Shown here one piece after another: positions 36,220 through 47,115 of a DNA stretch of 64,000 bases. The DNA lies in contig JAMCQP010000039.1 in assembly GCA_023381695.1 (NCBI GenBank), forward strand, positions 2,151 through 66,150, read 5' to 3'. The translations under genes were made by a program, and so were the position numbers. Source of the DNA: Bacillota bacterium. Lineage in GTDB: Bacteria; Bacillota; UBA5301; JAMCQP01. How positions within the stretch are numbered: the stretch's first letter is position 1; the number at the start of each line of letters is the position of its first letter. The notes beneath the pieces were generated by a model that worked only from the letters and a program-made list of their open reading frames with translations, had not been told where the DNA came from and made no database searches.

Positions 36220-37596
36220 TCAAAGTTGTTCAATCGTCGCCCGAGAGGTTGTCAAACGCCAACTCAGATGGCCGTTGGGGTCCGCCAGGGTGAGAGTGAC
36301 GGCTCCTTGTGCCACCATGTCCAATAGTTCGTATCCCGACACCCGAGTGGCGGCCGGGTTCACCCCAATGCTCAACGCCGAGCAGAAGAGAGCCTGCTTT
36401 GACCCGATCACCTTTTTGATGAGCTCTTCTCCCTCGGTTGCCTCAATGGCGGCAACCTTTCCGGCTTCGATGCCGAGGCGAAGGTTTTTGACGGGATGCC
36501 CCGCATAAACGAAGTCATCCGGGGCAAACGTTCCATGCGCACTGGCGGGTTTTGCAGGCAAGCGTACCTCCCCGGCGGGCAAGAATCCCACCTGCCAGCC
36601 TTCCTCCCTGGTTCCACGGGGAAACCTGGTGATCACCCTGGGGGGTTCATTGATGGTGAATTGCACTTCCGTCCCACCACGCCCGCGCACCGTTAACTCT
36701 TCCCCCACTTTGAAACGGGAAACATGCTGTTCAGCCTCGCTCTCCAGTTCTTCCGGGCTAACCGCCATCGCCTTCCAAAAGGTGTCGTAAAGCTTGGTAT
36801 AGTCCGTGCTTGTCAGCGCCCCCAGTGCCGGAGTAGGAAAACCGATCCACACCGTACGGCCGGTACGATTCCGGAGGGCTTGCAAGGCTTGCCATTCCCG
36901 TCGACGCCAGGCATCAAACTGGTCTTCCGGTATATTTTGAAAGACCGTCTCATCTGGAAATGGGTCAAGAGAGATCCGGCAGTCAATAAGGCTGTAGAGC
37001 TCTTTTTTCAGGAAGGGTTCCTCCTCAAGAACTTTCGCCGGAAGCTCACCAAGCGCCCTGGCGATTAACTCATCGCTTGTCACTTCCAGGATAGCGTCTG
37101 CTTTTGCATTCCAGACCTCAAAGACGATAGCTTCCAAAAACTCCATCTGATGGGGACCGCCCTCAACCAGCACTCTTTCCCCAGGCTCGATCATCAAAGT
37201 TTCATTGACGACGGTATGCGCCACCTTTCGAAAATCCACCCCCAGAACGTTTTGGCGGCGCCATTTCAAAAGATCGTCCTCCGCTGCTTGTTTGGCGATG
37301 GTTTCCACGTCGCTGTACATTCCGAGGCCGAGACCAAGCAGAAAGGTTTTGGCCTTGGCGCGATAATACTTCTCCGCTGCTCCCGATCTTGGTGACTCCT
37401 TCACCATTTCGATGAACCCATTTCTCTCAAGCTCTTTTACATGGTAATAGATTTTGGCATGGGGCTCGCCTAATATCGAAGCGAGCTGACCGACAGTAGC
37501 CTGATCCCTCACAAGAATGTCCAGTAACCGGATGCGTTTTTCGTCAGCCATTGCCTTGATCCGCCGGGGGTCTTCCACTAATATGAAGTCTTGCAT
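36220..37596 (-). CDS. ArsR-type winged-HTH fused to an M29 (AmpS/PepS-like) aminopeptidase-like domain
   Basis: The N-terminal KAMADEKRIRLLDILV..QATVGQLASILGEPHAKIYYHVKELE is ArsR-like. The remaining ~350 aa resemble thermophilic metalloprotease M29; catalytic residues were not verified. Confidence 0.5.
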   Translation of the reverse strand: MQDFILVEDPRRIKAMADEKRIRLLDILVRDQATVGQLASILGEPHAKIYYHVKELERNGFIEMVKESPRSGAAEKYYRAKAKTFLLGLGLGMYSDVETIAKQAAEDDLLKWRRQNVLGVDFRKVAHTVVNETLMIEPGERVLVEGGPHQMEFLEAIVFEVWNAKADAILEVTSDELIARALGELPAKVLEEEPFLKKELYSLIDCRISLDPFPDETVFQNIPEDQFDAWRRREWQALQALRNRTGRTVWIGFPTPALGALTSTDYTKLYDTFWKAMAVSPEELESEAEQHVSRFKVGEELTVRGRGGTEVQFTINEPPRVITRFPRGTREEGWQVGFLPAGEVRLPAKPASAHGTFAPDDFVYAGHPVKNLRLGIEAGKVAAIEATEGEELIKKVIGSKQALFCSALSIGVNPAATRVSGYELLDMVAQGAVTLTLADPNGHLSWRLTTSRATIEQL

Positions 37597-37602
37597 CCGA
37601 AT

Positions 37603-38838
37603 TCACTCCCTGGAAACTTCAAAGGTGGTCTTATTTAGTTCTGCGTAGGAAGGCGATTTCCTTCCTAAAATTCCTACTAGGCAAACGATGACTCCGATGC
37701 TCCCCATTATATTGTGCGCGCTAAATAGAGCCGCTAATGGGCCTGCAACAGCCAGACCCACGATACCGCCCAGCCGCCCCAGGGCGTTAATCGCGGCAAA
37801 AACGCGTCCCCGCATTTCAAGAGGAACGTGTGTCAATAGCAAAGTGTTAATTGGTATATCACTCAGCCCATCGGCGGCACCGATGAACCAGGCCCAAAAC
37901 AATACCACTCCGTAGCCTGGTCTTGTGAAGTAGAGAATTGAGGCGAGGCCCAGGCCGGTTATGGAGTTAAGAATCAACTTTCCCGGCTTCAATTTCTGGC
38001 CGAATTGCCCCACCAGGGCGGTGGAAAGGATTAAACCGGCGGATAAGACGGCTTCCACCAATCCGAATTGTTGGGGAGAGACCCGTAACCCATTCCGAAG
38101 GTAATCCACCATGAGGATGCTGCTGCTACCCATTACTAAAATAACGGGCGTATAGATTCCAAAGATGAACCGTAACTTCGGCTCATTCCAAATCGCCGAG
38201 GCCCCGCTGACAAGCTGGTTACGAAAGCTGGAACTGCGCCGCTCCTGCTTTTGTTCGGGAATAGGAAGAAAAAGGATTGACAACGAGGAAGCCAAAAATG
38301 TGGCTGCGTCCACCAGAAAGGCGCTTTTTACCCCCCATAGCCCAACAATCAAGCCTCCTGTGGCCGGCCCAAGAATCATCATCCCTTGCGTGGTCACCTG
38401 GATCAGGCCAACAGCGGCCATGTAGTTCTCCTTGCCCGCCATCTCGGGCATGACGGCCGAACGGGCGGGGTTGAAAACTGTCCCAAGCATGCCCAGGGCG
38501 AAGGCCAGCAGGTACAAATATGTGAGCGAGGGTGCCCAGATTACCGCGGCGATGAGCGTAGCGCGCAACAAATCGGCAACCACCATGATTGTTTTACGGT
38601 TAAACCGATCTACTAACACGCCTGCAACGGGGCCGAATATAATAGCCGGGATCGCCTGGCAAAAAGCGATGATGCTTAAGGCTACCGGCGAACTGGTCTT
38701 TTCGGTAACGAGGAGTAACAGGGCGATACGGGCGACCCCGTCACCAAAGTTGGAAATCGCCTGGGCAAACCACATGGTGATGAAGGTTGGCTTTCTGAAC
38801 AAGGGCAGATATCCCGCTTTCTGGATCATAGTGGACAA
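37603..38838 (-). CDS. MFS transporter
   Basis: 411 aa, 12 predicted TM segments, GVLVDRFNRK loop 2-3 motif. Confidence 0.8.
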   Translation of the reverse strand: MSTMIQKAGYLPLFRKPTFITMWFAQAISNFGDGVARIALLLLVTEKTSSPVALSIIAFCQAIPAIIFGPVAGVLVDRFNRKTIMVVADLLRATLIAAVIWAPSLTYLYLLAFALGMLGTVFNPARSAVMPEMAGKENYMAAVGLIQVTTQGMMILGPATGGLIVGLWGVKSAFLVDAATFLASSLSILFLPIPEQKQERRSSSFRNQLVSGASAIWNEPKLRFIFGIYTPVILVMGSSSILMVDYLRNGLRVSPQQFGLVEAVLSAGLILSTALVGQFGQKLKPGKLILNSITGLGLASILYFTRPGYGVVLFWAWFIGAADGLSDIPINTLLLTHVPLEMRGRVFAAINALGRLGGIVGLAVAGPLAALFSAHNIMGSIGVIVCLVGILGRKSPSYAELNKTTFEVSRE

Positions 38839-38897: not shown

Positions 38898-39503
38898 TTA
38901 CCCGCACAGATCTTTTGCGTAGATCTGGGCTAATTTTTTTTTGGCAATGGTAAGCCGCGACTTCACCGTGTTTACAGGAATCATGGTTACCCGGGAAATT
39001 TCCCGAAGGGACATCTGTTCAAAGTAACGGAAATAGACAATCTCGCGATAACATTTCGCAAGCTGCTCCAATATCTCTGTCATATAAAGGCGCTGGATCG
39101 CTTCAGAAAGGCCTAACACATCATTTTGTGGCAGTGTCTCTTTCAAATAGATCAATTTTTGAGGTTCAACCAGCATATAACTAAATTTGTTCTGAAACCT
39201 GTAGGTGTCAATCAATTTGTTTCGCAAAATTCGCCTGAGCCAGAAAGTAAAGCTCGCGGCGTCCCCTTGAAATTTTCCGGCATGCTGAAAAACAGCCATG
39301 AGCGTATCCTGGACGATTTCTTCGACGACAAAGTGATCAGATGTAAGGTTAGTTGCGTACTTAAAGATTTGTGGCCTGAACATTTCTACGAATTCTTCAA
39401 AGGCGTTCAAGTCCCCATTGGTAATTTGATTCAATAACCTCTCGAAATCTTTCGTGGCTTCGAACGGTTGAGCGGTTCTGGCAAGGTCAGGAAAATTTTT
39501 CAT
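38898..39503 (-). CDS. ECF-type RNA polymerase sigma-70 family factor
   Basis: Region 2 (IFKYATNLT....EEIVQDTLMAVF) and region 4 HTH (MSLREISRVTMIPVNTVKSRL). The sequence is AT-richer than its flanks. Confidence 0.8.
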   Translation of the reverse strand: MKNFPDLARTAQPFEATKDFERLLNQITNGDLNAFEEFVEMFRPQIFKYATNLTSDHFVVEEIVQDTLMAVFQHAGKFQGDAASFTFWLRRILRNKLIDTYRFQNKFSYMLVEPQKLIYLKETLPQNDVLGLSEAIQRLYMTEILEQLAKCYREIVYFRYFEQMSLREISRVTMIPVNTVKSRLTIAKKKLAQIYAKDLCG

Positions 39504-39521
39504 AGCAACCGCCTCCTTTGG

Positions 39522-39550
39522 TTGAACCTACGAAAAACTTTACATAAAAT
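39522..39550 (+). promoter_or_regulatory. Candidate sigma-A promoter (TTGAAC-17-TAAAAT) facing the MFS/peptide operon
   Basis: TTGAAC 39522-39527, 17-nt spacer, TAAAAT 39545-39550. Confidence 0.4.
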
Positions 39551-39681
39551 GTGCAGATCCTTTTGCCGTTCTTAACCGTCTTAATTAGTGAGTATACATT
39601 TTAATAAAATCTTCTGGGTGTTAAAGTGTTTTCCTGCTAATTTATCATCTGTCAAAAAAATTTTTTTAGCCAAACAATGAG

Positions 39682-40947
39682 GTGAAGGCGCTAATGGCCC
39701 TGATGATGATGGTGCGTTGGTTGATACGTAGGGAGAATAACCGTTTTTTTCTCCTGTGGGTGAGCAAGGCATTATCTGAAGCTATTGATTGGATTCATTA
39801 TTTCGCTCTCATCTTTTATACCCACGCTCTGACTGGCTCCATGCTGGCGACGGGAATGGCGTTGGTTTTCGGTTCAATTCCTTCGTTACTTTTAAGCCAT
39901 GGGGGAAGTGTATTAGCCAGCCGGCGAAATTGTAAATTTATTATTATGGTAAGCAATTTTTTGAGTTTCTTTCTGGCTTTGTTTATTGGTTTGAGGGCTT
40001 TCCATGGTTCACCCACGGTTTATGAAATTTACGTGGTGGCATTTCTGATGGGGGGTTGTAAGGCGTTCTTTCGATTGGTATTGGCTATAAGCATATCAAT
40101 CGTCGTTCCCGCCAATGAGTTGAATATAGCACACTCCCTAGCCAGACTGGCTTCCAACATCACCGAGATCGCCGGACCTCTGGTTGGGGGGGCGGTGATT
40201 GCTTTGTACGGGGCACCCATGGCTTTCGTTGCCAATGGGGTGTTATTCTTGGCGGCCGCCGTTACAGGAGCATTTATTAGCATCCCGCACCAGATCGACT
40301 TTTCTGCCCGCGGTAATTTATTGAATTTAAGAGAAAACCTTAAATACATAAAGAAAAACCAAACAGTGCGGCCAATAATCTTTGTGATGATCATGGTGGT
40401 GTTTTTTGCCCGACCTATGCCCATGGTCCTAAAAGTTTTGTTACATGAGTATTACCAGATTGGAAGCTTGGGTTTGGGTTTTCTGGTTGGCGCCAGCGCC
40501 ATTGGAACTCTTCTGACCACAAGTTACCTTGTAGCCAGGCCGACATGGTTGGGGCGAACGTATATGTTCCTGGGTTTTCCGGCTGTGTCAGGAATTATCC
40601 TTGTACTTGTTGGATGGATTCAAAACTTTTATGTGGCGATAGGGTTGATGTTCTTAGAAGGACTCGTTGGAGGCCTGGGCGAGATAACGTTCAGCATACT
40701 GATTCAGCTTGCGGTGCCAGATCAAATGCAGAGAAGGGTTTTCAGGTCCTTTTCCACGGTGACGGCGATGGTTACTCCATTATCGTTTGCGGTTGCGGGT
40801 GTTGCCCTGGAAAAAGTTGGGGTCCAGACGATCTTGAGTATCGGCGGTTTCGCTCTTGTAGCGGGAGGATTGACATTGTTTAAGAATGCCTTGCAAACTA
40901 TGTGGCGAGGAGGAATCAGTTCCCTTATTTCCACGAGCAAGAGCTAA
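39682..40947 (+). CDS. MFS transporter (EntS/MFS_3-like), putative exporter of the cluster
   Basis: 421 aa, 12 TM segments. ATG 39694 after GAGGTGA is an alternative start. Confidence 0.8.
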   Translation: MKALMALMMMVRWLIRRENNRFFLLWVSKALSEAIDWIHYFALIFYTHALTGSMLATGMALVFGSIPSLLLSHGGSVLASRRNCKFIIMVSNFLSFFLALFIGLRAFHGSPTVYEIYVVAFLMGGCKAFFRLVLAISISIVVPANELNIAHSLARLASNITEIAGPLVGGAVIALYGAPMAFVANGVLFLAAAVTGAFISIPHQIDFSARGNLLNLRENLKYIKKNQTVRPIIFVMIMVVFFARPMPMVLKVLLHEYYQIGSLGLGFLVGASAIGTLLTTSYLVARPTWLGRTYMFLGFPAVSGIILVLVGWIQNFYVAIGLMFLEGLVGGLGEITFSILIQLAVPDQMQRRVFRSFSTVTAMVTPLSFAVAGVALEKVGVQTILSIGGFALVAGGLTLFKNALQTMWRGGISSLISTSKS

Positions 40948-41035
40948 ATAGATCTGGTAGAAATGCGCGTTTCATGTTTCATGCCATTTTTCCCGGAGGA
41001 GGGGAGAAATAATGGGGTGAGAAGGAGGTGAGAAC

Positions 41036-41119
41036 ATGAAGTATGCAAAGCCAGTGCTGCGGGAGGTAGTTGTCACGCTTACGGCGGATAAGTGGTTAAT
41101 CAGTATCAAGGCCGAATAA
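41036..41119 (+). CDS. 27-aa candidate RiPP precursor peptide MKYAKPVLREVVVTLTADKWLISIKAE
   Basis: AGGAGG (41023-41028) lies 7 nt before the ATG. TAA stop at 41117-41119. Located directly upstream of the rSAM/SPASM gene and too short for the ORF track. Confidence 0.6.
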   Translation: MKYAKPVLREVVVTLTADKWLISIKAE

Positions 41120-41155
41120 TAAGCCTGGAAAGCTCTTGAAATTCAGAGGTCAAGG

Positions 41156-41178
41156 ATCCCCTCTCCTCCGGGGATTTT
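41156..41178 (+). terminator. Weak hairpin plus T-run after the peptide ORF (possible attenuator)
   Basis: ATCCCC (41156-41161) pairs with GGGGAT (41170-41175), with an 8-nt loop, followed by TTT. Confidence 0.3.
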
Positions 41179-41235
41179 CAGCAGTCAAGCGCGCAAAGTT
41201 TCTGTTTTGTTGCTCAAGAAAGGGGAGCGTTTTGG

Positions 41236-42348
41236 ATGATAGATAAAAAAAAGCTGTCGGTTGTCCGGTGGGATATCACATCGAAATGTAACTTTAATTG
41301 CAGTCATTGCTATGCAAGCAGCCTGCATCGATCACAATCCTCCGACCTGTCGCTGGAAGAAGTTCAAGTCGGGATCAAAAACCTCGGAGATCCGGGTGTC
41401 TCAACTGTAATGTTTTACGGAGGAGAGCCACTTTACAGGGACGATATTGTAAAAGTTGTCGAGGCCTGTACAGAGCAAGGCATTCAGACCTACATCACCA
41501 CCAACGGCTATCTGCTGGACAAGAAATGCGCGGCTCTTGTTCAAGCGGGGCTGAGGGGATTTGGTGTGAGCTTGGACGGGGCGACGGAAGATGTCTATGC
41601 GTATATCAGAGGAGGCAACAGATATGAACAGGTCATTGCCAATTTTAAGGAATTATCGAAACTGCACGTCGCTTCGAGGGTGATAGTGATGGTCCTTATG
41701 AAGGAAAACGCCGCTGACGCCTCCAAAATGATCAGACTTGCGCGCGATCTGGATGCCACAGGGGTGATTTACGAAGGACTTGCCGTTGACGGCAACGCCC
41801 TGGTTTCCAAAAGAAGCACGCCGTTGGAACCGGGGGAATACGTGCGGGTTTTCGAGAGTATCGTGGAAGAGACGCTTCGAGTGGGATTTCCAGTGGAAGC
41901 CATCAATCTGCGAATGGCTCCCCCTAAAGTAGTCCAGCACTTGAACAGCAAATACAACGTCGGGTTGGATGTGGAGCAAGGAACGTGTCGGGCAGGCATG
42001 AACAGCGTGTTTATAGATTCCCGGGGATTGGTCTTCCCATGCAGAGGGGTGCATCCCAGGATGACCATCAAGACCGGATTCAAATTAAAAGGGCTAAGCG
42101 TAGTGCAAAACACCCTTCACGATATTCTTCGCTCCGATGAATTTTCAAGTTTCTTCATGCTGGGGGATATCCGAAAGCCCTCAAACGACCTGGTGGGATG
42201 CAGAGGTTGTTCCCATTTGTTTCATGATTGCCACCCCTGCCCGATTGCGTTTGCCACTCAGCAAAGCGCGCATGTGGAGGGGTGCATCAATTACCCGCTG
42301 GGCGCCATATGCCAGGCTTCAAGCGAATCAGGCTTGAACATAGCTTGA
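41236..42348 (+). CDS. Radical SAM enzyme with C-terminal SPASM-type auxiliary-cluster domain
   Basis: C18-N-F-N-C22-S-H-C25, GGEPL, CRAGMNSVFIDSRGLVFPC (Gx4C), CRGCSHLFHDCHPC, and two further C-terminal Cys. Confidence 0.9.
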   Translation: MIDKKKLSVVRWDITSKCNFNCSHCYASSLHRSQSSDLSLEEVQVGIKNLGDPGVSTVMFYGGEPLYRDDIVKVVEACTEQGIQTYITTNGYLLDKKCAALVQAGLRGFGVSLDGATEDVYAYIRGGNRYEQVIANFKELSKLHVASRVIVMVLMKENAADASKMIRLARDLDATGVIYEGLAVDGNALVSKRSTPLEPGEYVRVFESIVEETLRVGFPVEAINLRMAPPKVVQHLNSKYNVGLDVEQGTCRAGMNSVFIDSRGLVFPCRGVHPRMTIKTGFKLKGLSVVQNTLHDILRSDEFSSFFMLGDIRKPSNDLVGCRGCSHLFHDCHPCPIAFATQQSAHVEGCINYPLGAICQASSESGLNIA

Positions 42349-42386
42349 ACTTATTCCAAAATCATGGTTCAAGGGAGGAGAGCATC

Positions 42387-42665
42387 ATGGATCTTCACGA
42401 CAAACCCCAAAAGCTTGCCATGGTTTACGCTCGTCGCCAACAGGATGGTTATGGGCTTTTCAACACTGAAACAGCGCGGTTTTACATCATAAACGAGATC
42501 GGTTACGAGGTGTGGGAAAGATGCACGGGAAGCAATACGGTGCAACAGATAGCCCAGGCCTTGTTCGAGATCTTGTTGGATCCACCTGAGCCCGATGCTG
42601 TGGAAAAGGATGTCCTGGAAATATTGGATCAGATGCATCAAAACGGACTGGTATCCGTGGCCTGA
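42387..42665 (+). CDS. PqqD-family protein (stand-alone RiPP recognition element)
   Basis: 92 aa. ...GYGLFNTETARFYIINEIGYEVWERCTGSNTVQQIAQAL.......VEKDVLEILDQMHQNGLV fits the PqqD pattern. AGGGAGGAG SD. Confidence 0.8.
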   Translation: MDLHDKPQKLAMVYARRQQDGYGLFNTETARFYIINEIGYEVWERCTGSNTVQQIAQALFEILLDPPEPDAVEKDVLEILDQMHQNGLVSVA

Positions 42666-42678
42666 GAGGGGTATTTTC

Positions 42679-44046
42679 ATGGCGTCTATAACCATTGTCA
42701 ATTCAGCCTTTCCCTCCAGGCGGCCGTATTTTCCCATCGGCTCCCTGATCGTCGCTGCTTCGATTGAACATGCGGGGTACCGGGTTAATTTCCGTGACTA
42801 TCAGCTTGCCACCGGGGAAAATTACGCGTCGCCAACCGCATTTGCAAAATTTCTCGTGGAATGTGGCTCGGAAATCGTGGGGATTACCGTCTTCGCCAAT
42901 ACGTTACCAACCGTGTTGTTGGGCATCCAGCTCCTAAAAGAGCGATCGCCCGACGTCAAGGTCGTTCTTGGAGGGCCGGGGGTATCCGGGCTTTCGGAGA
43001 GGATTATGGCGTTATCGCCGGTTGACGTGGTGGCCAGAGGCGAAGGCGAGTATACCGCGCCGCGGGTTGTAAGAGCATTCCTTGGAAACGAAGAGTTCTC
43101 TAGCATATCCGGAATAACGTACAGGCAGGGTTGGGACGTCATTAGCAACCCGGATTCTCCCCGGGCAAAAAACCTGGATCTTCTTCCATTTCCTGGTTAC
43201 AACCTGGTCAATCTGGTGGATTACGGCAATGAAGTGGGCATCATAACCAGCCGCGGATGTCCTTACCAATGTTCATTCTGCGCCAAGCCAATCTGGGAAC
43301 ATGGCGTCTCTTTCCGGACGATCCCCAACGTGATTTCGGAGTTATCTGCTCTCAAGGGCACAATTAGAAAACTTTACATTTCCGACGATTCCTTTGTCAG
43401 CGTGAGAGAGAGAGTCCTCCAGTTTTGCAGCGATTATCTGGGAAGCGGGATCGCCACCGAATGGGAGTGTACTGGCCGAGTGGGGCTGGTCGATGACACA
43501 TTGCTGTCCTTGATGGCCGCGGCTGGTTGCACGGACATCTTCTTCGGAATCGAGTCGGGTTCTAACCGAATATTGAGCAGAATTTCCAAGAAATTCGTGA
43601 TCGAAGATGCAAAACGGGATTTATTGCTTGCCTCCCAAAAGATCCGGCGCGTGCACGTATCGTTTATCTGGGGGTTTCCGTTTGAGGATCTGGATGACTT
43701 TCAGAGGACGATTTATTTCATCCTGGAAAACACGGCCAGGAATCCTTTCAACCCGGTGATGACGCTTGCCACCCCGTTTATTTCTTCGCCGCTATACAAC
43801 GAATTCAAGGACAGGCTCGTCTTCCTTCCGGACAACCATTATAACGGGTCAACCCTCGGGCGGGGAGAAACTCTGGAAAAGTACCCCGAGATGCTTGATT
43901 TCGTGAAAAGACACCCGGATGTGTTCCCATCCTTTTTATACTTTGATCACGCTGATTTTGGAGAGAAACGTGATATTGTGGACAGAATCATCGCCAACCA
44001 AAAAATTGGGGAGGGATCGAGACATGGCGGACGTGACAATCGTTAA
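42679..44046 (+). CDS. B12-binding-domain radical SAM enzyme (class B), paralogue 1
   Basis: N-terminal Rossmann-like cobalamin domain (VVLGGPGVS), rSAM motif SRGCPYQCSFC. Confidence 0.85.
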   Translation: MASITIVNSAFPSRRPYFPIGSLIVAASIEHAGYRVNFRDYQLATGENYASPTAFAKFLVECGSEIVGITVFANTLPTVLLGIQLLKERSPDVKVVLGGPGVSGLSERIMALSPVDVVARGEGEYTAPRVVRAFLGNEEFSSISGITYRQGWDVISNPDSPRAKNLDLLPFPGYNLVNLVDYGNEVGIITSRGCPYQCSFCAKPIWEHGVSFRTIPNVISELSALKGTIRKLYISDDSFVSVRERVLQFCSDYLGSGIATEWECTGRVGLVDDTLLSLMAAAGCTDIFFGIESGSNRILSRISKKFVIEDAKRDLLLASQKIRRVHVSFIWGFPFEDLDDFQRTIYFILENTARNPFNPVMTLATPFISSPLYNEFKDRLVFLPDNHYNGSTLGRGETLEKYPEMLDFVKRHPDVFPSFLYFDHADFGEKRDIVDRIIANQKIGEGSRHGGRDNR

Positions 44047-45376
44047 CAGCGGCTTGTTGCTTCACCGGACAGACATCCCCACCGGACCCTTGATCGTTGT
44101 TTCGGTGCTGGAAAAGGCTGGCTTTGTCGTGGAATTCCGCGATTATCAAGGTGTGGCGATTCCCAAACGCCCGTCCCCCCGGACGTTCAAGGCCTTTCTT
44201 GACGATTGCGCTGATCTTCTCGGAATTTCGGTCATGAGCAATTCACTCCCCACCGTCCTGGGCGCCGTCAGGTTGTTGAAAGAGGAGAAACCCTGGATCA
44301 AGGTGTTTCTGGGCGGGCCGGGCTGCCGGGAGTTGGCGTTTGACATTCTGCAAAAATTCCCCGTTGACGCGATTGTTTTGGGCGAGGGGGAGATTACGGC
44401 CCCCGAACTGGTCATGGCCCTCAAAAATGATTCGGATCTGCGACGGGTGGCTGGAATCGCGTATAAAGAAGAAGATCAGGTGATCTTTACAAAAGAACGC
44501 CCCTTGATTGACGACCTGGACTCGATTCCGTTCCCAGCCTACCACCATATCAAACTGGAATCGTATAACAATGTTGCCACAGTTATGACCGCTCGCGGGT
44601 GCCCATTTAGATGCAAGTTTTGCAGCGCGCACTCGGTTCCCCAGCGAAAGATGCGATACCGCAGCATCCCCAGTATTATGGAGGAATTGTCGCTTCTAGC
44701 GCCACAAGCCCGATATGTTGCGTTCCTGGACGATACGTTCATCCTTAGCAAGGCGAGAGCATTGGAAATCGCCCGCAACGTCCAGAATAGATTCGGCTTG
44801 CGATATACATGCAACGCGAAGATCTCATTGATGGACGACGATTGGCTGAAAGCTCTTGCGGATACCGATAATTTTCTGGTTTTCTACGGCGTGGAGTCCG
44901 GGTCAAACAGAGTCTTGGAACGGATAGGCAAGGGACACACCTTGGAGGAGGCGCGGAAGGTAATCAGAAAAACTGCTGACTCCATCGAGAAAGTCCGGAC
45001 GTCTTACATCTGGGGATACCCGTTTGAGACGCTGGAAGACTTCTTCGACACGGCCATGTCCTTGAGGCAAGACATGCAGCAACCAAATGTACTCAGCCAG
45101 ATGTCGCTGTTGTCGCCACTTCCCGGCACCGAGTTCACGGAGGAGTTTAAAGACATTATGTCGTTTTCCCCGGCGATTCAATCAAGGGCCGGTGGGCTGC
45201 CGGTGAACGAAAATATATCAGACTACCCTGAGCTGATAGAACTGATCACCGGGAATCCTGGCTTGTTTTCTTCCTTTTATTACTTTGCCCATGAGGGCTT
45301 CGAGTCCAAATTTAATGCCATTAAAAGGATTGACTGGATTTACGACGATCAAAAGAAAAGAGCATACGGTTATTAG
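44024..45376 (+). CDS. B12-binding-domain radical SAM enzyme (class B), paralogue 2
   Basis: MADVTIVNSG... parallels MASITIVNSA... of paralogue 1. VFLGGPGC, ARGCPFRCKFC. 23-nt overlap with the upstream gene. Confidence 0.85.
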   Translation: MADVTIVNSGLLLHRTDIPTGPLIVVSVLEKAGFVVEFRDYQGVAIPKRPSPRTFKAFLDDCADLLGISVMSNSLPTVLGAVRLLKEEKPWIKVFLGGPGCRELAFDILQKFPVDAIVLGEGEITAPELVMALKNDSDLRRVAGIAYKEEDQVIFTKERPLIDDLDSIPFPAYHHIKLESYNNVATVMTARGCPFRCKFCSAHSVPQRKMRYRSIPSIMEELSLLAPQARYVAFLDDTFILSKARALEIARNVQNRFGLRYTCNAKISLMDDDWLKALADTDNFLVFYGVESGSNRVLERIGKGHTLEEARKVIRKTADSIEKVRTSYIWGYPFETLEDFFDTAMSLRQDMQQPNVLSQMSLLSPLPGTEFTEEFKDIMSFSPAIQSRAGGLPVNENISDYPELIELITGNPGLFSSFYYFAHEGFESKFNAIKRIDWIYDDQKKRAYGY

Positions 45377-45395
45377 GATGAGAGGGGGGAGGTAG

Positions 45396-46283
45396 GTGAA
45401 CCTGAGTGTTTTCCAGGCGATTGCACGATTCTTTGGATCCTTGTTGATACATCCCATATGGGGAAGGATGGTGGGCGCGATCGCGGTCGCGGCGCCGTTG
45501 TCGCTCCTTGGGTGGCCGCGCATGTGGCACCTGTTCCAGCAACCCGCTCTTTTCGGCATCCTGGCATTGCCCACGGTGTATTTGATGTTGTTTTTCGGGG
45601 CGCTGACTCATGAGCTGGGGCATATCGTCGTCCTGCGGCTGATGGGCTGCAAAAGCACGCTGCAAATCATGAAACATTCACATTCTCGCCTGATCCCCTT
45701 CAACATGAAGACGTCCATTGCCGGTGACTCTCCCGCCTATTCCACTTCCAACCGGTTGTTGGCACGGGGACTGGCGGGATTCGGGGCCAACTTGACCACG
45801 GATGCAATCTTAATGGTGTTGAGCGTAGCGATGCACAATCCCTGGTTGGCTTTGTTCGCGGCCGTCCAGGGCTTCTCCGGGCATGGGGCGACTTCCTGGT
45901 CCAGGTTGGATGGGGACACTGACGTGAGAACTATCCGCGAGGCACTGGCGTTCAAGGACTCTGTCTCGACCCGCGGAAGTGAGTCGGATGGCCAGCTAGA
46001 CCTGGATTTAATTGTGGACCTGGAAATATCGCAAAATGTTGTCACCCCGTATTGGGTAATGGTGGCGGGTATTGCCGCGGCGGATGCAGATTGTGAGGGC
46101 GAATTTCTGTCTTTCAACGCCGGTAATGCCCTTTTGATGATTTTGCCGCGCGCACAAACCGGTAGGCATGTGGCGCATGTCCGTGGCAGAAAAGTCGGGC
46201 CGGTCTCTCTGACTACGAAGACTGGTTATAACGAAAGATACCCTGCGCCCAAGGAAGGCCCGAGGGGTGCTGTGGGGATCTAA
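45396..46283 (+). CDS. Membrane zinc metalloprotease-like protein (M50/site-2-protease-like HExxH + LDG) with unknown C-terminal domain
   Basis: Hydrophobic N-terminal half with LTHELGHIVV and SRLDGD. GGGGGAGG SD before GTG 45396. Confidence 0.6.
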   Translation: MNLSVFQAIARFFGSLLIHPIWGRMVGAIAVAAPLSLLGWPRMWHLFQQPALFGILALPTVYLMLFFGALTHELGHIVVLRLMGCKSTLQIMKHSHSRLIPFNMKTSIAGDSPAYSTSNRLLARGLAGFGANLTTDAILMVLSVAMHNPWLALFAAVQGFSGHGATSWSRLDGDTDVRTIREALAFKDSVSTRGSESDGQLDLDLIVDLEISQNVVTPYWVMVAGIAAADADCEGEFLSFNAGNALLMILPRAQTGRHVAHVRGRKVGPVSLTTKTGYNERYPAPKEGPRGAVGI

Positions 46284-46299
46284 GGTGTAGTTTCCGATA

Positions 46300-46400
46300 C
46301 TATTTCAAATCCACGCCAAAATACTCGCGGATCAATACGTCCCTCATCCCGGCGATTTTATGCCAGGGGACATGGGGGGATAAGGTTTCTTTAGGGCTAG
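46300..46400 (-). pseudogene. HepT (DUF86/HEPN) relic
   Basis: The minus-strand frame reads ...SPKETLSPHVPWHKIAGMRDVLIREYFGVDLK*. No start codon, truncated at both ends, and the catalytic His of Rx4H is replaced by Arg. Confidence 0.45.
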
Positions 46401-46460
46401 AAAGCAATTGCAGGCCACCATCTTCAAAAGCAGTCCGCCCAGGTGGCCATAAAAAACTTG

Positions 46461-46489
46461 TTGCATAACAGTGGATTCCGTGCTAGAAT
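46461..46489 (+). promoter_or_regulatory. Candidate sigma-A promoter (TTGCAT-17-TGcTAGAAT) of the hutP-like/aro operon leader
   Basis: TTGCAT 46461-46466, 17-nt spacer ending in TGc, TAGAAT 46484-46489. Confidence 0.5.
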
Positions 46490-46544
46490 GAAAAGAAATT
46501 CAGTTGGGATGTAGAACGGTAGCACGGAGTCCAACGAAAAGAAG

Positions 46545-46599
46545 CACCGGATGGGGCGGTCGCCATGGCGATCGTACTGTTTTTGGGCGGTGTGTTTTT
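46545..46599 (+). terminator. Leader hairpin 1 with U-run
   Basis: CACCG (46545-46549) pairs with CGGTG (46588-46592), enclosing a GGTCGCC/GGCGATC hairpin, followed by TGTTTTTG. Confidence 0.35.
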
Positions 46600-46610
46600 G
46601 TATCTCTGTT

Positions 46611-46636
46611 AACGTCCTACACGGGGGCGTTTTTTT
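46611..46636 (+). terminator. Leader hairpin 2, intrinsic-terminator-like
   Basis: AACGTCC...GGGCGTT stem followed by TTTTTT, 54 nt upstream of the hutP-like start. Confidence 0.5.
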
Positions 46637-46689
46637 CATAGCGTTTTTTACTAAATCTTTACCTGAATTGTATGTGAGGGGGTGAGAGG

Positions 46690-47115
46690 TTGTTTAAGCT
46701 CTACACGGAGGGCAGCAAAGGGGTGGCCCAGGCGGCGCTGCTTCTGGCCATGACCACCGACCGGGACGACGAGGATCAACTCAAGGCCACGCTGGATCAG
46801 TTGCACATCAAAGCCGCGGCCGCCGATTACGGGGGAGAGTTCGTCACCTCCGTCAAAAAGATTGTGGAGCGGGCGGTGGTGGCCGCCAAACGCGAGGGAG
46901 TCATCAAAGAGACCCACACGGATGAGGGAGCGGTGGCGGGCGCCGCCCATGAAGCTCTGGCCCAGATCATGAGCAAGGCCATGGGATGGAACGTGGGCGG
47001 CAAGATTGGGATCGCCCGCAAAGGGGATCACCTCGCCGTAGCCGTCTTTTTTGCGGTGGGATTGCTGCACTTAAACGACATCACCATCGGCCTGGGGCAC
47101 CGGGCGGTTCCTTGA
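46690..47115 (+). CDS. HutP-family RNA-binding protein (antiterminator-like)
   Basis: 141 aa. [11 protein letters not shown]..., [24 protein letters not shown] and [10 protein letters not shown]...IGLGHR are collinear with B. subtilis HutP blocks. Confidence 0.7.

Follow-up and report, generated by a model that had tools for sequence, protein, structure and literature searches.

Tandem, overlapping B12-binding radical SAM paralogues in a rare peptide cassette: candidate C-methyltransferases of a 27-residue precursor

In a low-GC island of a Bacillota genome, two overlapping genes, here called A and B, are judged with slightly better than even confidence to encode intact, non-redundant class B radical SAM enzymes (B12-rSAMs), each of which would methylate its own carbon of the 27-residue peptide encoded in the same island. 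The stretch of DNA that was analysed (the window) comprises 64,000 nucleotides of contig JAMCQP010000039.1, and the island within it carries, in this order, genes for an MFS protein, the 27-aa precursor, a radical SAM/SPASM enzyme, a PqqD protein, A, B and an M50-like protease (Table 1). This gene set represents a real, rare and uncharacterised cassette, which is a variant of RiPP tailoring. Functionalising unactivated carbons, as class B radical SAM enzymes do, is difficult by chemical synthesis. To our knowledge, few RiPP-acting members of this class have been characterised and the basis of their site selectivity is poorly understood.

Table 1. Features of the cassette and of the island edge, in positions of the window.
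Feature	Position	Strand	Length	Remarks
ECF-type sigma factor, island edge	38898-39503	-		Sigma70_r2 and r4_2 domains; inside the low-GC stretch; link to the cassette uncertain
MFS exporter candidate	39682-40947	+	421 aa	MFS_1 68 bits, MFS_3 61 bits
Cys-free precursor peptide	41036-41119	+	27 aa	MKYAKPVLREVVVTLTADKWLISIKAE; ribosome-binding site GGAGGTGAG; near-identical peptides in related cassettes
Radical SAM/SPASM enzyme	41236-42348	+	370 aa	PF04055 102 bits; SPASM 20.5 bits, slightly below the cut-off of 21.5
Discrete PqqD-type RiPP recognition protein	42390-42665	+	91 aa	PF05402 51.1 bits, cut-off 23.4
B12-rSAM paralogue A, class B radical SAM	42679-44046	+	455 aa	N-terminus MASITIVNS; PF02310 and PF04055
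A/B gene overlap, probable translational coupling	44024-44046	+	23 nt	read from the sequence
B12-rSAM paralogue B, class B radical SAM	44024-45376	+	450 aa	N-terminus MADVTIVNS; PF04055 and PF02310
M50-like membrane metalloprotease candidate	45396-46283	+	295 aa	weak PF02163, 18.6 bits, below the cut-off

An earlier note on this DNA described two tandem B12-rSAM paralogues of ~450 residues, collinear from their start, sharing GGPG, GEGE and RGCP(Y/F)xCxFC blocks and encoded by genes that overlap by 23 nt, and this description was borne out in every point. With the reading frames as given, BLASTP aligned A and B collinearly from residue 1 across 438 residues (36% identity, 56% positives, 3 gaps, E value 4e-103), a similarity between the two paralogues that lies well above chance level. 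In this alignment, LGGPG and GEGE are common to both, and RGCPYQCSFC of A is found opposite RGCPFRCKFC of B. A Shine-Dalgarno-like GGGGAGGGA lies immediately 5' of the ATG of B. According to gene calls, the two genes also overlap elsewhere, by 20 nt in locus L077 and by 8 nt each in L001, L002 and L083, and the overlap is kept in all five of the two-copy cassettes. Regarding the start of A, a longer frame from 42595 was considered and rejected, as it would run into the PqqD gene and none of the 25 aligned homologues has such an extension; the start at 42679 was preferred because all 25 begin at M-x-D/S-I/V-T-I-V/I-N.

Both proteins passed the gathering cut-offs of the B12-binding domain PF02310 (58.3 bits for A and 47.4 bits for B, against 32.1) and of the Radical_SAM domain PF04055 (49.0 and 76.3 bits, against 29.5). 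The CxxxCxxC motif is present in both, reading CPYQCSFC in A, and its cysteines C193, C197 and C200 are invariant across 25 cassette paralogues; in the alignment, the whole CxxxCxxC, GGP, GEGE and DYQ blocks are likewise invariant in 25/25. An AF2 model of B (pLDDT 90.5, pTM 0.90) had as its best Foldseek match MgmA/QCMT (9CCB; E 4e-23, TM 0.66/0.71), followed by the methyltransferases TsrM, CysS and TokK, with OxsB and AprD4 also among the fold matches; the top set of MgmA, TsrM, CysS, TokK and OxsB spans E values from 4e-23 to 1e-18. By PF02310, PF04055 and CxxxCxxC for both proteins, and by the modelled fold for B only, the pair is assigned to the class B (cobalamin-binding) radical SAM enzymes, cobalamin binding being a predicted property. 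Additionally, the source genome carries CobS, which points to cofactor supply, and in Clostridium sp. 19966 the cassette adjoins cobalamin genes. Since A and B keep every catalytic motif, neither of them resembles a pseudo-enzyme.

The same cassette was found in about nine lineages, Clostridium sp. 19966 among them, and contains 2, 5 or 6 copies of the B12-rSAM gene. The SPASM enzyme, PqqD, the B12-rSAM array, the M50-like protein and the MFS protein recur in L001, L002, L077, L083/84, L003/4, L078 and L079/80; no cassette lacks the SPASM enzyme or PqqD, the HExGH and TD motifs of the M50-like candidate are invariant across 7 cassette homologues, and in the other cassettes an MFS_3 gene is placed after the M50-like gene. 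The ECF-type sigma factor had no conserved counterpart beside the other cassettes, and a promoter and terminator scan of 39400-46800 yielded counts no different from those of shuffled sequence. A search with the M50-like protein against 5.8 billion proteins, which requires shared words, returned two matches, of which one came from Clostridium sp. 19966, and a literature search recovered only analogues and no account of a cassette with this gene set or peptide.

The cassette peptides are near-identical and 27-30 aa long, following the pattern Y-x-K/R-P...A-D-K-x-L-x-S, and a conserved small peptide ORF was found in every cassette for which upstream DNA is present. The peptide is conserved over its full length, which is atypical of a RiPP core, and its conserved core, VVVTLTADKWLISIK, is rich in aliphatic residues. 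When metagenomes were searched from the peptide, by means of a degenerate DNA pattern, five matches were obtained, and in all five cases PqqD and a B12-rSAM array followed immediately downstream. This constant company of a precursor gene and an RRE (PqqD), wherever upstream DNA exists, marks A and B as candidate RiPP-tailoring enzymes. The earlier note had proposed that the peptide connection would fall if the pair clustered with lipid or cofactor enzymes and occurred elsewhere without a peptide gene, and neither situation was encountered.

It is very improbable that A and B act instead on a non-peptide substrate, such as a lipid, a cofactor or a sugar, with the peptide genes as mere neighbours. 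HpnJ, BchE, a ladderane-lipid enzyme and BzaD do appear among the weaker HMM matches, and the wider family at 30-38% identity, found in MAGs, mostly occurs without PqqD and the peptide. A GTDB genome scan with protein A delivered 72 such loci, at 30-38% identity, in none of which a scripted check detected PqqD, an M50-like gene or an ADK-type peptide; these loci therefore represent the wider B12-rSAM family rather than the cassette, and were used as outgroups only. The context and the tree speak against a non-peptide substrate. In the cassettes examined, the B12-rSAM genes were without exception accompanied by the peptide and PqqD, the five peptide-first matches included. The phylogenetic tree, which covers the cassette B12-rSAM copies with the wider-family GTDB loci as outgroup, places all cassette copies in a single clade separate from the wider family (support 96/91). 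Moreover, around the cassettes examined no lipid or cofactor genes were conserved, and hopanoid, chlorophyll or B12-ligand genes flanked none of them. For HpnR, BzaD and the ladderane rSAM, A and B reached neither the family cut-off nor a matching pathway context.

Within the cassette clade, A groups with members from L077, L001, L002 and L083 in one orthogroup (support 100/99) and B belongs to another (100/100), and the two orthogroups have identical, congruent internal topologies. In the cassettes with 5-6 copies, every array position constitutes its own orthogroup (support 98-100). A branches outside the clade that unites B and all paralogues of the 5-6-copy cassettes (95/87), and the latter cassettes have no A-type member but retain B-like copies. 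In this tree, the A and B orthogroups are old and each is conserved in its own right, and this separation, together with the per-position orthogroups, argues for non-redundant, site-specific roles. Certain positions, flanking the cluster loop or in the C-terminal region, are also fixed differently in A and B.

The congruence of the two trees would also agree with an obligate heteromer of A and B performing a single joint modification, in which one subunit would have no site of its own and would chiefly provide a scaffold or bind the substrate. The overlap kept in 5/5 two-copy cassettes, which suggests translational coupling, is consistent with such a complex, for which the clavusporin enzymes offer a precedent, since the B12-rSAM MpcB requires a partner, MpcC, that resembles the C-terminal part of MpcB. 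However, every catalytic motif is kept in A, in B and in all 25 cassette copies, and the retention of B-like copies in cassettes devoid of an A-type member indicates that B-type enzymes are independent of A. An obligate heteromer is thus considered unlikely, and two separately acting enzymes are the preferred arrangement.

The closeness of A and B to characterised class B enzymes was judged by HMM scores, PDB sequence matches and fold ranks. The best NCBIfam match of both is ApyD (NF050148), with 157.6 bits for A and 161.0 bits for B, which do not reach the cut-off of 750, and PhpK, which is likewise a methyltransferase, HpnJ and MgmA follow in the ranking. The cut-offs were likewise not reached for the MgmA/QCMT model TIGR04014 (101.4 and 118.0 bits, against 360), the RiPP C-methyltransferase model TIGR03975 (rSAM_ocin_1; 54.1 and 68.5 bits, against 281.85), HpnJ TIGR03471 (113 and 126 bits, against 578) and BchE TIGR02026 (100 and 102 bits, against 481). 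As A and B fall short of every curated family cut-off, homology does not allow a function to be assigned to them. The best PDB sequence match of A and B is 9CCB (60 and 73 bits, respectively, ~21% identity), which corresponds to QCMT (PMC12931638). On these rankings, the closest characterised relatives are peptide or protein C-methyltransferases, namely ApyD by HMM and MgmA/QCMT by sequence and predicted fold.

Neither relative is a close counterpart. MgmA/QCMT resembles A and B in its ~450 residues, N-terminal Rossmann B12 domain, radical SAM barrel and lack of a fused RRE, and its methyl acceptor is an sp3 carbon in a polypeptide, but its substrate is the large enzyme MCR in methanogens and not a small precursor accompanied by PqqD. 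ApyD is a RiPP B12-rSAM that methylates the unactivated C-beta of Tyr to give beta-methyltyrosine in aminopyruvatide; however, it has 645 aa and a fused RRE, whereas A and B have 455 and 450 aa and no N-terminal extension, and its cluster is centred on an MNIO and a P450, both absent from the present cassette. PoyB/PoyC, BotRMT1-3 and MpcB/MpcC follow the same logic, in which a ribosomal peptide is C-methylated at aliphatic residues by one or more class B radical SAM enzymes. In bottromycin biosynthesis, three paralogues serve different methylation sites, and clavusporins are hydrophobic peptides bearing several C-beta methylations introduced by a B12-rSAM. Compared with the polytheonamide, bottromycin and clavusporin systems, the present cassette has no DUF5825, YcaO or NHLP leader, the pair is accompanied by a discrete PqqD, a SPASM enzyme and an M50-like protease, and the copy number of 2, 5 or 6 is combined with a near-constant peptide of 27-30 aa. 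The PQQ (PqqA/D/E), SCM, GeoRSP and YydF/G/H systems share the short conserved precursor, the discrete PqqD and the rSAM/SPASM enzyme, and in the YydFGH epipeptide system a radical SAM enzyme is paired with an M50 membrane protease; nevertheless, no NCBIfam model of these systems reaches its cut-off here and none of them has B12-rSAM arrays.

The earlier note took duplicated class B enzymes in RiPP pathways as a usual sign of several regiospecific C-methylations. The several sites are favoured by the tree and the 5-6-copy arrays; as to methylation itself, the nearest characterised relatives are methyltransferases, but every family score lies far below its cut-off. C-methylation by A and B is thus a predicted chemistry, which we infer from the relationships described above. 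The caveat in the same note, that class B enzymes also perform other chemistry, still stands, as illustrated by PbsB, a B12-rSAM that joins two ortho-tyrosines by a C-C cross-link in a RiPP (PMC12257519). At least one of A and B could, although this is rather doubtful, perform a reaction other than methyl transfer on the peptide: it might form a C-C or C-heteroatom cross-link, cyclise or rearrange the peptide, or abstract an H atom and thereby cause an epimerisation. Besides the PbsB precedent, QCMT, whose structure is the closest one solved, is reported to epimerise peptides in vitro as well. In addition, the fold matches include OxsB and AprD4, and the HMM matches include BchE and HpnJ. The features peculiar to A point in the same direction: its cluster loop has one residue deleted just after the third cluster Cys (FC-AKPIW, against FCSAHSIW in all other cassette paralogues), it branches outside the remaining cassette paralogues, and it is found only where the cassette peptide has Thr14 and Trp18. 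Positions 14 and 18 are Thr and Trp in the A-bearing cassettes and Lys and Ile in those with 5-6 copies, and a Lys-Trp cross-link at the ADKW motif was rejected as a general feature because of the replacement of Trp18. On the other hand, methyltransferases make up most of the characterised relatives ranking high by every measure, the SPASM enzyme is already at hand for a cross-link or an epimerisation, and Val, Ile, Leu and Thr, which abound in the core, are residues typically methylated in polytheonamides, bottromycins and clavusporins.

In the preferred pathway, with methylation by both A and B, the discrete PqqD would bind the peptide at the N-terminal segment Y-x-K-P-x-L and hand it to the three radical SAM enzymes. 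A and B would each take H from a different unactivated carbon in the core and move a methyl group from methylcobalamin to that carbon, one site per enzyme, while the SPASM enzyme would additionally either cross-link or epimerise the peptide. The M50-like protease may then trim the product and the MFS pump export it, in this presumed order, and cassettes with 5-6 paralogues and nearly the same peptide would modify more sites. A more far-reaching and only tentative proposal is that the cassette defines an undescribed RiPP class, in which a short Cys-free peptide near-invariant across phyla, together with 2, 5 or 6 positional B12-rSAM orthogroups, would constitute a one-enzyme-one-site alkylation code, and in which A, early-branching, with its loop deletion and its restriction to Thr14/Trp18 peptides, would perform a chemistry new for class B enzymes on peptides.

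The cassette constitutes a natural series, in which nearly one 27-30-aa substrate meets 2, 5 or 6 paralogues that have long been distinct, and it is therefore well suited for mapping enzyme sequence to the site and type of modification. The system is also tractable, given a cultured carrier, Clostridium sp. 19966, compact proteins of ~450 aa and an RRE that is a separate small protein. As predicted from the genes, the product would be a hydrophobic, exported and probably multiply alkylated peptide, and the conservation of this peptide from Clostridia to unrelated high-GC lineages may reflect a conserved biological role.

Genes A and B lie on the same strand, and their products are collinear from residue 1 with 36% identity over 438 residues (BLASTP, E 4e-103); the two tandem paralogous genes described in the earlier note were therefore recovered, together with the 23-nt overlap (44024-44046) and every one of the GGPG, GEGE and RGCP[Y/F]xCxFC blocks it had quoted. 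A purine-rich ribosome-binding site lies 5' of the ATG of B, and in both proteins the Pfam models for a B12-binding and a Radical_SAM domain score above their gathering thresholds. In NCBIfam, ApyD, whose product is beta-methyltyrosine in a RiPP, was the top match for A and B (158 and 161 bits), followed by PhpK, HpnJ, MgmA and BchE, all far below family cut-offs. Among solved structures, 9CCB, which is MgmA/QCMT, the glutamine C-methyltransferase that acts on MCR (PMC12931638), is nearest in sequence; it was also the best fold match (E 4e-23) of the AlphaFold prediction for B, whose pLDDT is 90.5, ahead of TsrM, CysS, TokK, OxsB and AprD4. A and B have the same compact class B architecture as MgmA, with no fused RRE. 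Taken together, these rankings identify them as canonical class B radical SAM enzymes, compact and MgmA-like, that belong to no curated family.

Features of the window and of related loci (L, other contigs; G000, own genome)
Feature	Coordinates	Strand	Remarks
ArsR/HTH_20-M29-like gene	36220-37596	-	458 aa; N-terminal DNA-binding domain, peptidase M29-like body
Second MFS gene	37603-38838
MFS transporter	39682-40947	+	window cassette
27-codon ORF MKYAKPVLREVVVTLTADKWLISIKAE	41036-41119	+	strong ribosome-binding site
Radical SAM/SPASM enzyme	41236-42348	+	window cassette
PqqD	42390-42665	+	window cassette
Gene A	42679-44046	+	455 aa (ORF list, sequence reads)
Gene B	44024-45376	+	450 aa (ORF list, sequence reads)
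Membrane protein	45396-46283	+	HExxH motif, weak peptidase M50 similarity
Short ORF	46300-46407	-	C-terminal end …HKIAGMRDVLIREYFGVDLK
ECF sigma factor	left edge of stretch	divergent
Distant B12-rSAM genes, G000	C78:14254-15249; C59:91598-92650; C120:122052-123092; C16:34043-34990
Five/six-copy sister cassettes	L003:4189-14961; L078:1301-12473; L079:2888-13449		paralogues placed around SPASM gene
Two-copy cassette and cobalamin genes	L083:5859-20867		cassette, then His_Phos/CobC-like, CobU, CobS, CbiP/CobQ, CbiB, aminotransferase, BtuFCD-like ABC uptake system
B12-rSAM and opposite-strand set	L081:9986-16697		535-aa rSAM, MFS, two SPASM-like genes, 186-aa PqqD-domain protein
25-aa Cys-containing ORF MIFEDPVVEKVACVPCMSNPMSVVD	L081:16620-16697	-	upstream of PqqD
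Five tandem B12-rSAM paralogues	L021:1-8140		Aminicenantes MAG; wider non-cassette family

The plus-strand genes of the window cassette are closely spaced, and around A and B the GC content is 47-53%, against about 60% for the genome (a MAG of 3.76 Mb, 89.6% complete). No orthologue of protein B was found in 60 relatives, members of the same genus among them, which is consistent with a horizontally acquired island. The short ORF downstream of the membrane protein gene has an end similar, in our reading, to the C-termini of HepT/DUF86-type toxins, and appears to be what is left of a gene at the right-hand border of this low-GC island; the ArsR/HTH_20-M29-like gene adjoins the second MFS gene and the ECF sigma factor gene. 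Since the host genome encodes CobS, cobalamin supply is plausible. The same MAG carries four further B12-rSAM genes, which are more distant and share 28-33% identity with A.

When A was used as query against a collection of 5.8 billion proteins, only five clusters were found at 43% identity or above, the next matches reaching at most 39%. Among the contigs read, which carried these clusters and the next-ranked matches, the cassette gene set recurs in several lineages. Besides the window, two-copy cassettes occur on L001, L002, the truncated contig L077, and L083/L084, in the order SPASM, PqqD, A, B, M50-like, MFS, and the A and B genes overlap in all five, by 23 nt in the window, 20 nt in L077 and 8 nt in each of L001, L002 and L083. 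Five copies are found in L003/L004 and L079/L080 and six in L078, ordered PqqD, (B12)n, SPASM, (B12)m, M50-like, then MFS in L003/L004 and in L079; L078 is cut off by its contig end before this point. L083 derives from a cultured isolate, Clostridium sp. 19966 (GCA_032335695.1), in which the cassette lies immediately upstream of cobalamin genes, an arrangement that may tie it functionally to cofactor supply or may be coincidental.

Every cassette having upstream DNA carries a short ORF built on one common pattern, listed here with the conserved Tyr as first residue or else as it was read: MKYAKPVLREVVVTLTADKWLISIKAE (window), YIKPSIKEISVCITADKWLLSLKQVQAS (L001), YVKPMVKEISIGITADKWLISLKEA (L002), YIKPMVKEISVCITADKWLLSLKNQ (L083), MSYEKPTLCEVEINIKADKILMSIHVAA (L003), MVYEKPRLEVVEVRVKADKILMSIKAE (L078) and TYERPTLNEVEINIKADKILMSIHVCN (L079). 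Counting that Tyr as 1, Y1, K/R3, P4, A15, D16, K17, L19 and S21 are invariant and positions 6, 9, 11, 13, 20 and 22 stay aliphatic; the peptides of the five- and six-copy cassettes (…KADKILMSIH/K…) nearly match the window peptide in pattern and length. In the reverse direction, the motif was back-translated into a degenerate DNA pattern and a metagenome collection was scanned, and each of the five matches was immediately followed by PqqD and a B12-rSAM array. Enzymes and peptide are thus linked from both directions, and occurrence without a peptide gene, which in the earlier note would count against its reading, was not seen in the cassettes with upstream DNA. The association of A and B with the peptide is well supported, and a non-peptide substrate for them is highly improbable. 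The precursor is conserved over its full length across a low-GC Clostridium, a 60% GC MAG and high-GC metagenome contigs, and in this it is closer to PqqA- and MftA-type precursors than to a typical variable RiPP core.

A tree computed from 27 cassette paralogues, with 11 outgroups from the wider family in GTDB genomes (IQ-TREE, LG+C20, 1000 ultrafast bootstraps and SH-aLRT), with which a quick version agreed, placed the cassette enzymes in a single clade (96/91). A and B form separate orthogroups of five lineages each (100/99 and 100/100) with identical internal topology, (window, L077), (L002, (L001, L083)), so their duplication is old. The paralogues of the five- and six-copy cassettes fall into one orthogroup per array position (support 98-100), with one extra, lineage-specific duplication in L078. 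The co-inheritance of A and B as distinct proteins argues for non-redundant functions, a reading that is well supported; that they form an obligate heteromer making a single modification is improbable. The CxxxCxxC triad and the GGP, GEGE and DYQ blocks are retained in 25/25 aligned paralogues, so none resembles a pseudo-enzyme. Where A and B are fixed for different residues, the positions adjoin the cluster loop or belong to the C-terminal region, and A lacks one residue just past the third cluster cysteine (FC-AKPIW vs FCSAHSIW); these features may reflect differences in substrate positioning.

A B12-rSAM of L081, an archaeal-looking contig (GCA_015665585.1), also falls inside the cassette clade, and its gene arrangement differs. 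No ADK-type peptide, the conserved precursor with the A-D-K motif, was found at L081; the 25-aa ORF there has a similar F-x-x-P-x-V-E leader. The five-paralogue array of L021 is interleaved with two ORFs of ~255-288 aa resembling class I SAM methyltransferases, and no PqqD was detected at that locus.

On balance, A and B would be two site-specific peptide C-methyltransferases. The discrete PqqD would present the peptide to them, each would methylate its own site in the conserved aliphatic-rich core, and the rest of maturation, along with export, would fall to the SPASM enzyme, the M50-like protease and the MFS pump. Methyl transfer itself would be expected by analogy with the nearest relatives and with precedent. 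It is possible, if rather unlikely, that at least one paralogue performs non-methyl chemistry, for which A is the better candidate: it stands apart by sequence and in the tree, where B and every paralogue of the five- and six-copy cassettes form a group without it (95/87), and it is present only with Thr14/Trp18 peptides. The RiPP enzyme PbsB forms a C-C cross-link in place of methylation (PMC12257519), and QCMT is also capable of peptide epimerisation in vitro, whereas in the clavusporins, hydrophobic RiPPs, a B12-rSAM methylates several C-beta positions.

No published description of this cassette was found in the literature searched. The cassette is a real variant of RiPP tailoring by B12-rSAMs, both rare and uncharacterised, whose series of two, five and six copies is informative; its value lies in being a good lead for experiments, not in being of a surprising kind.
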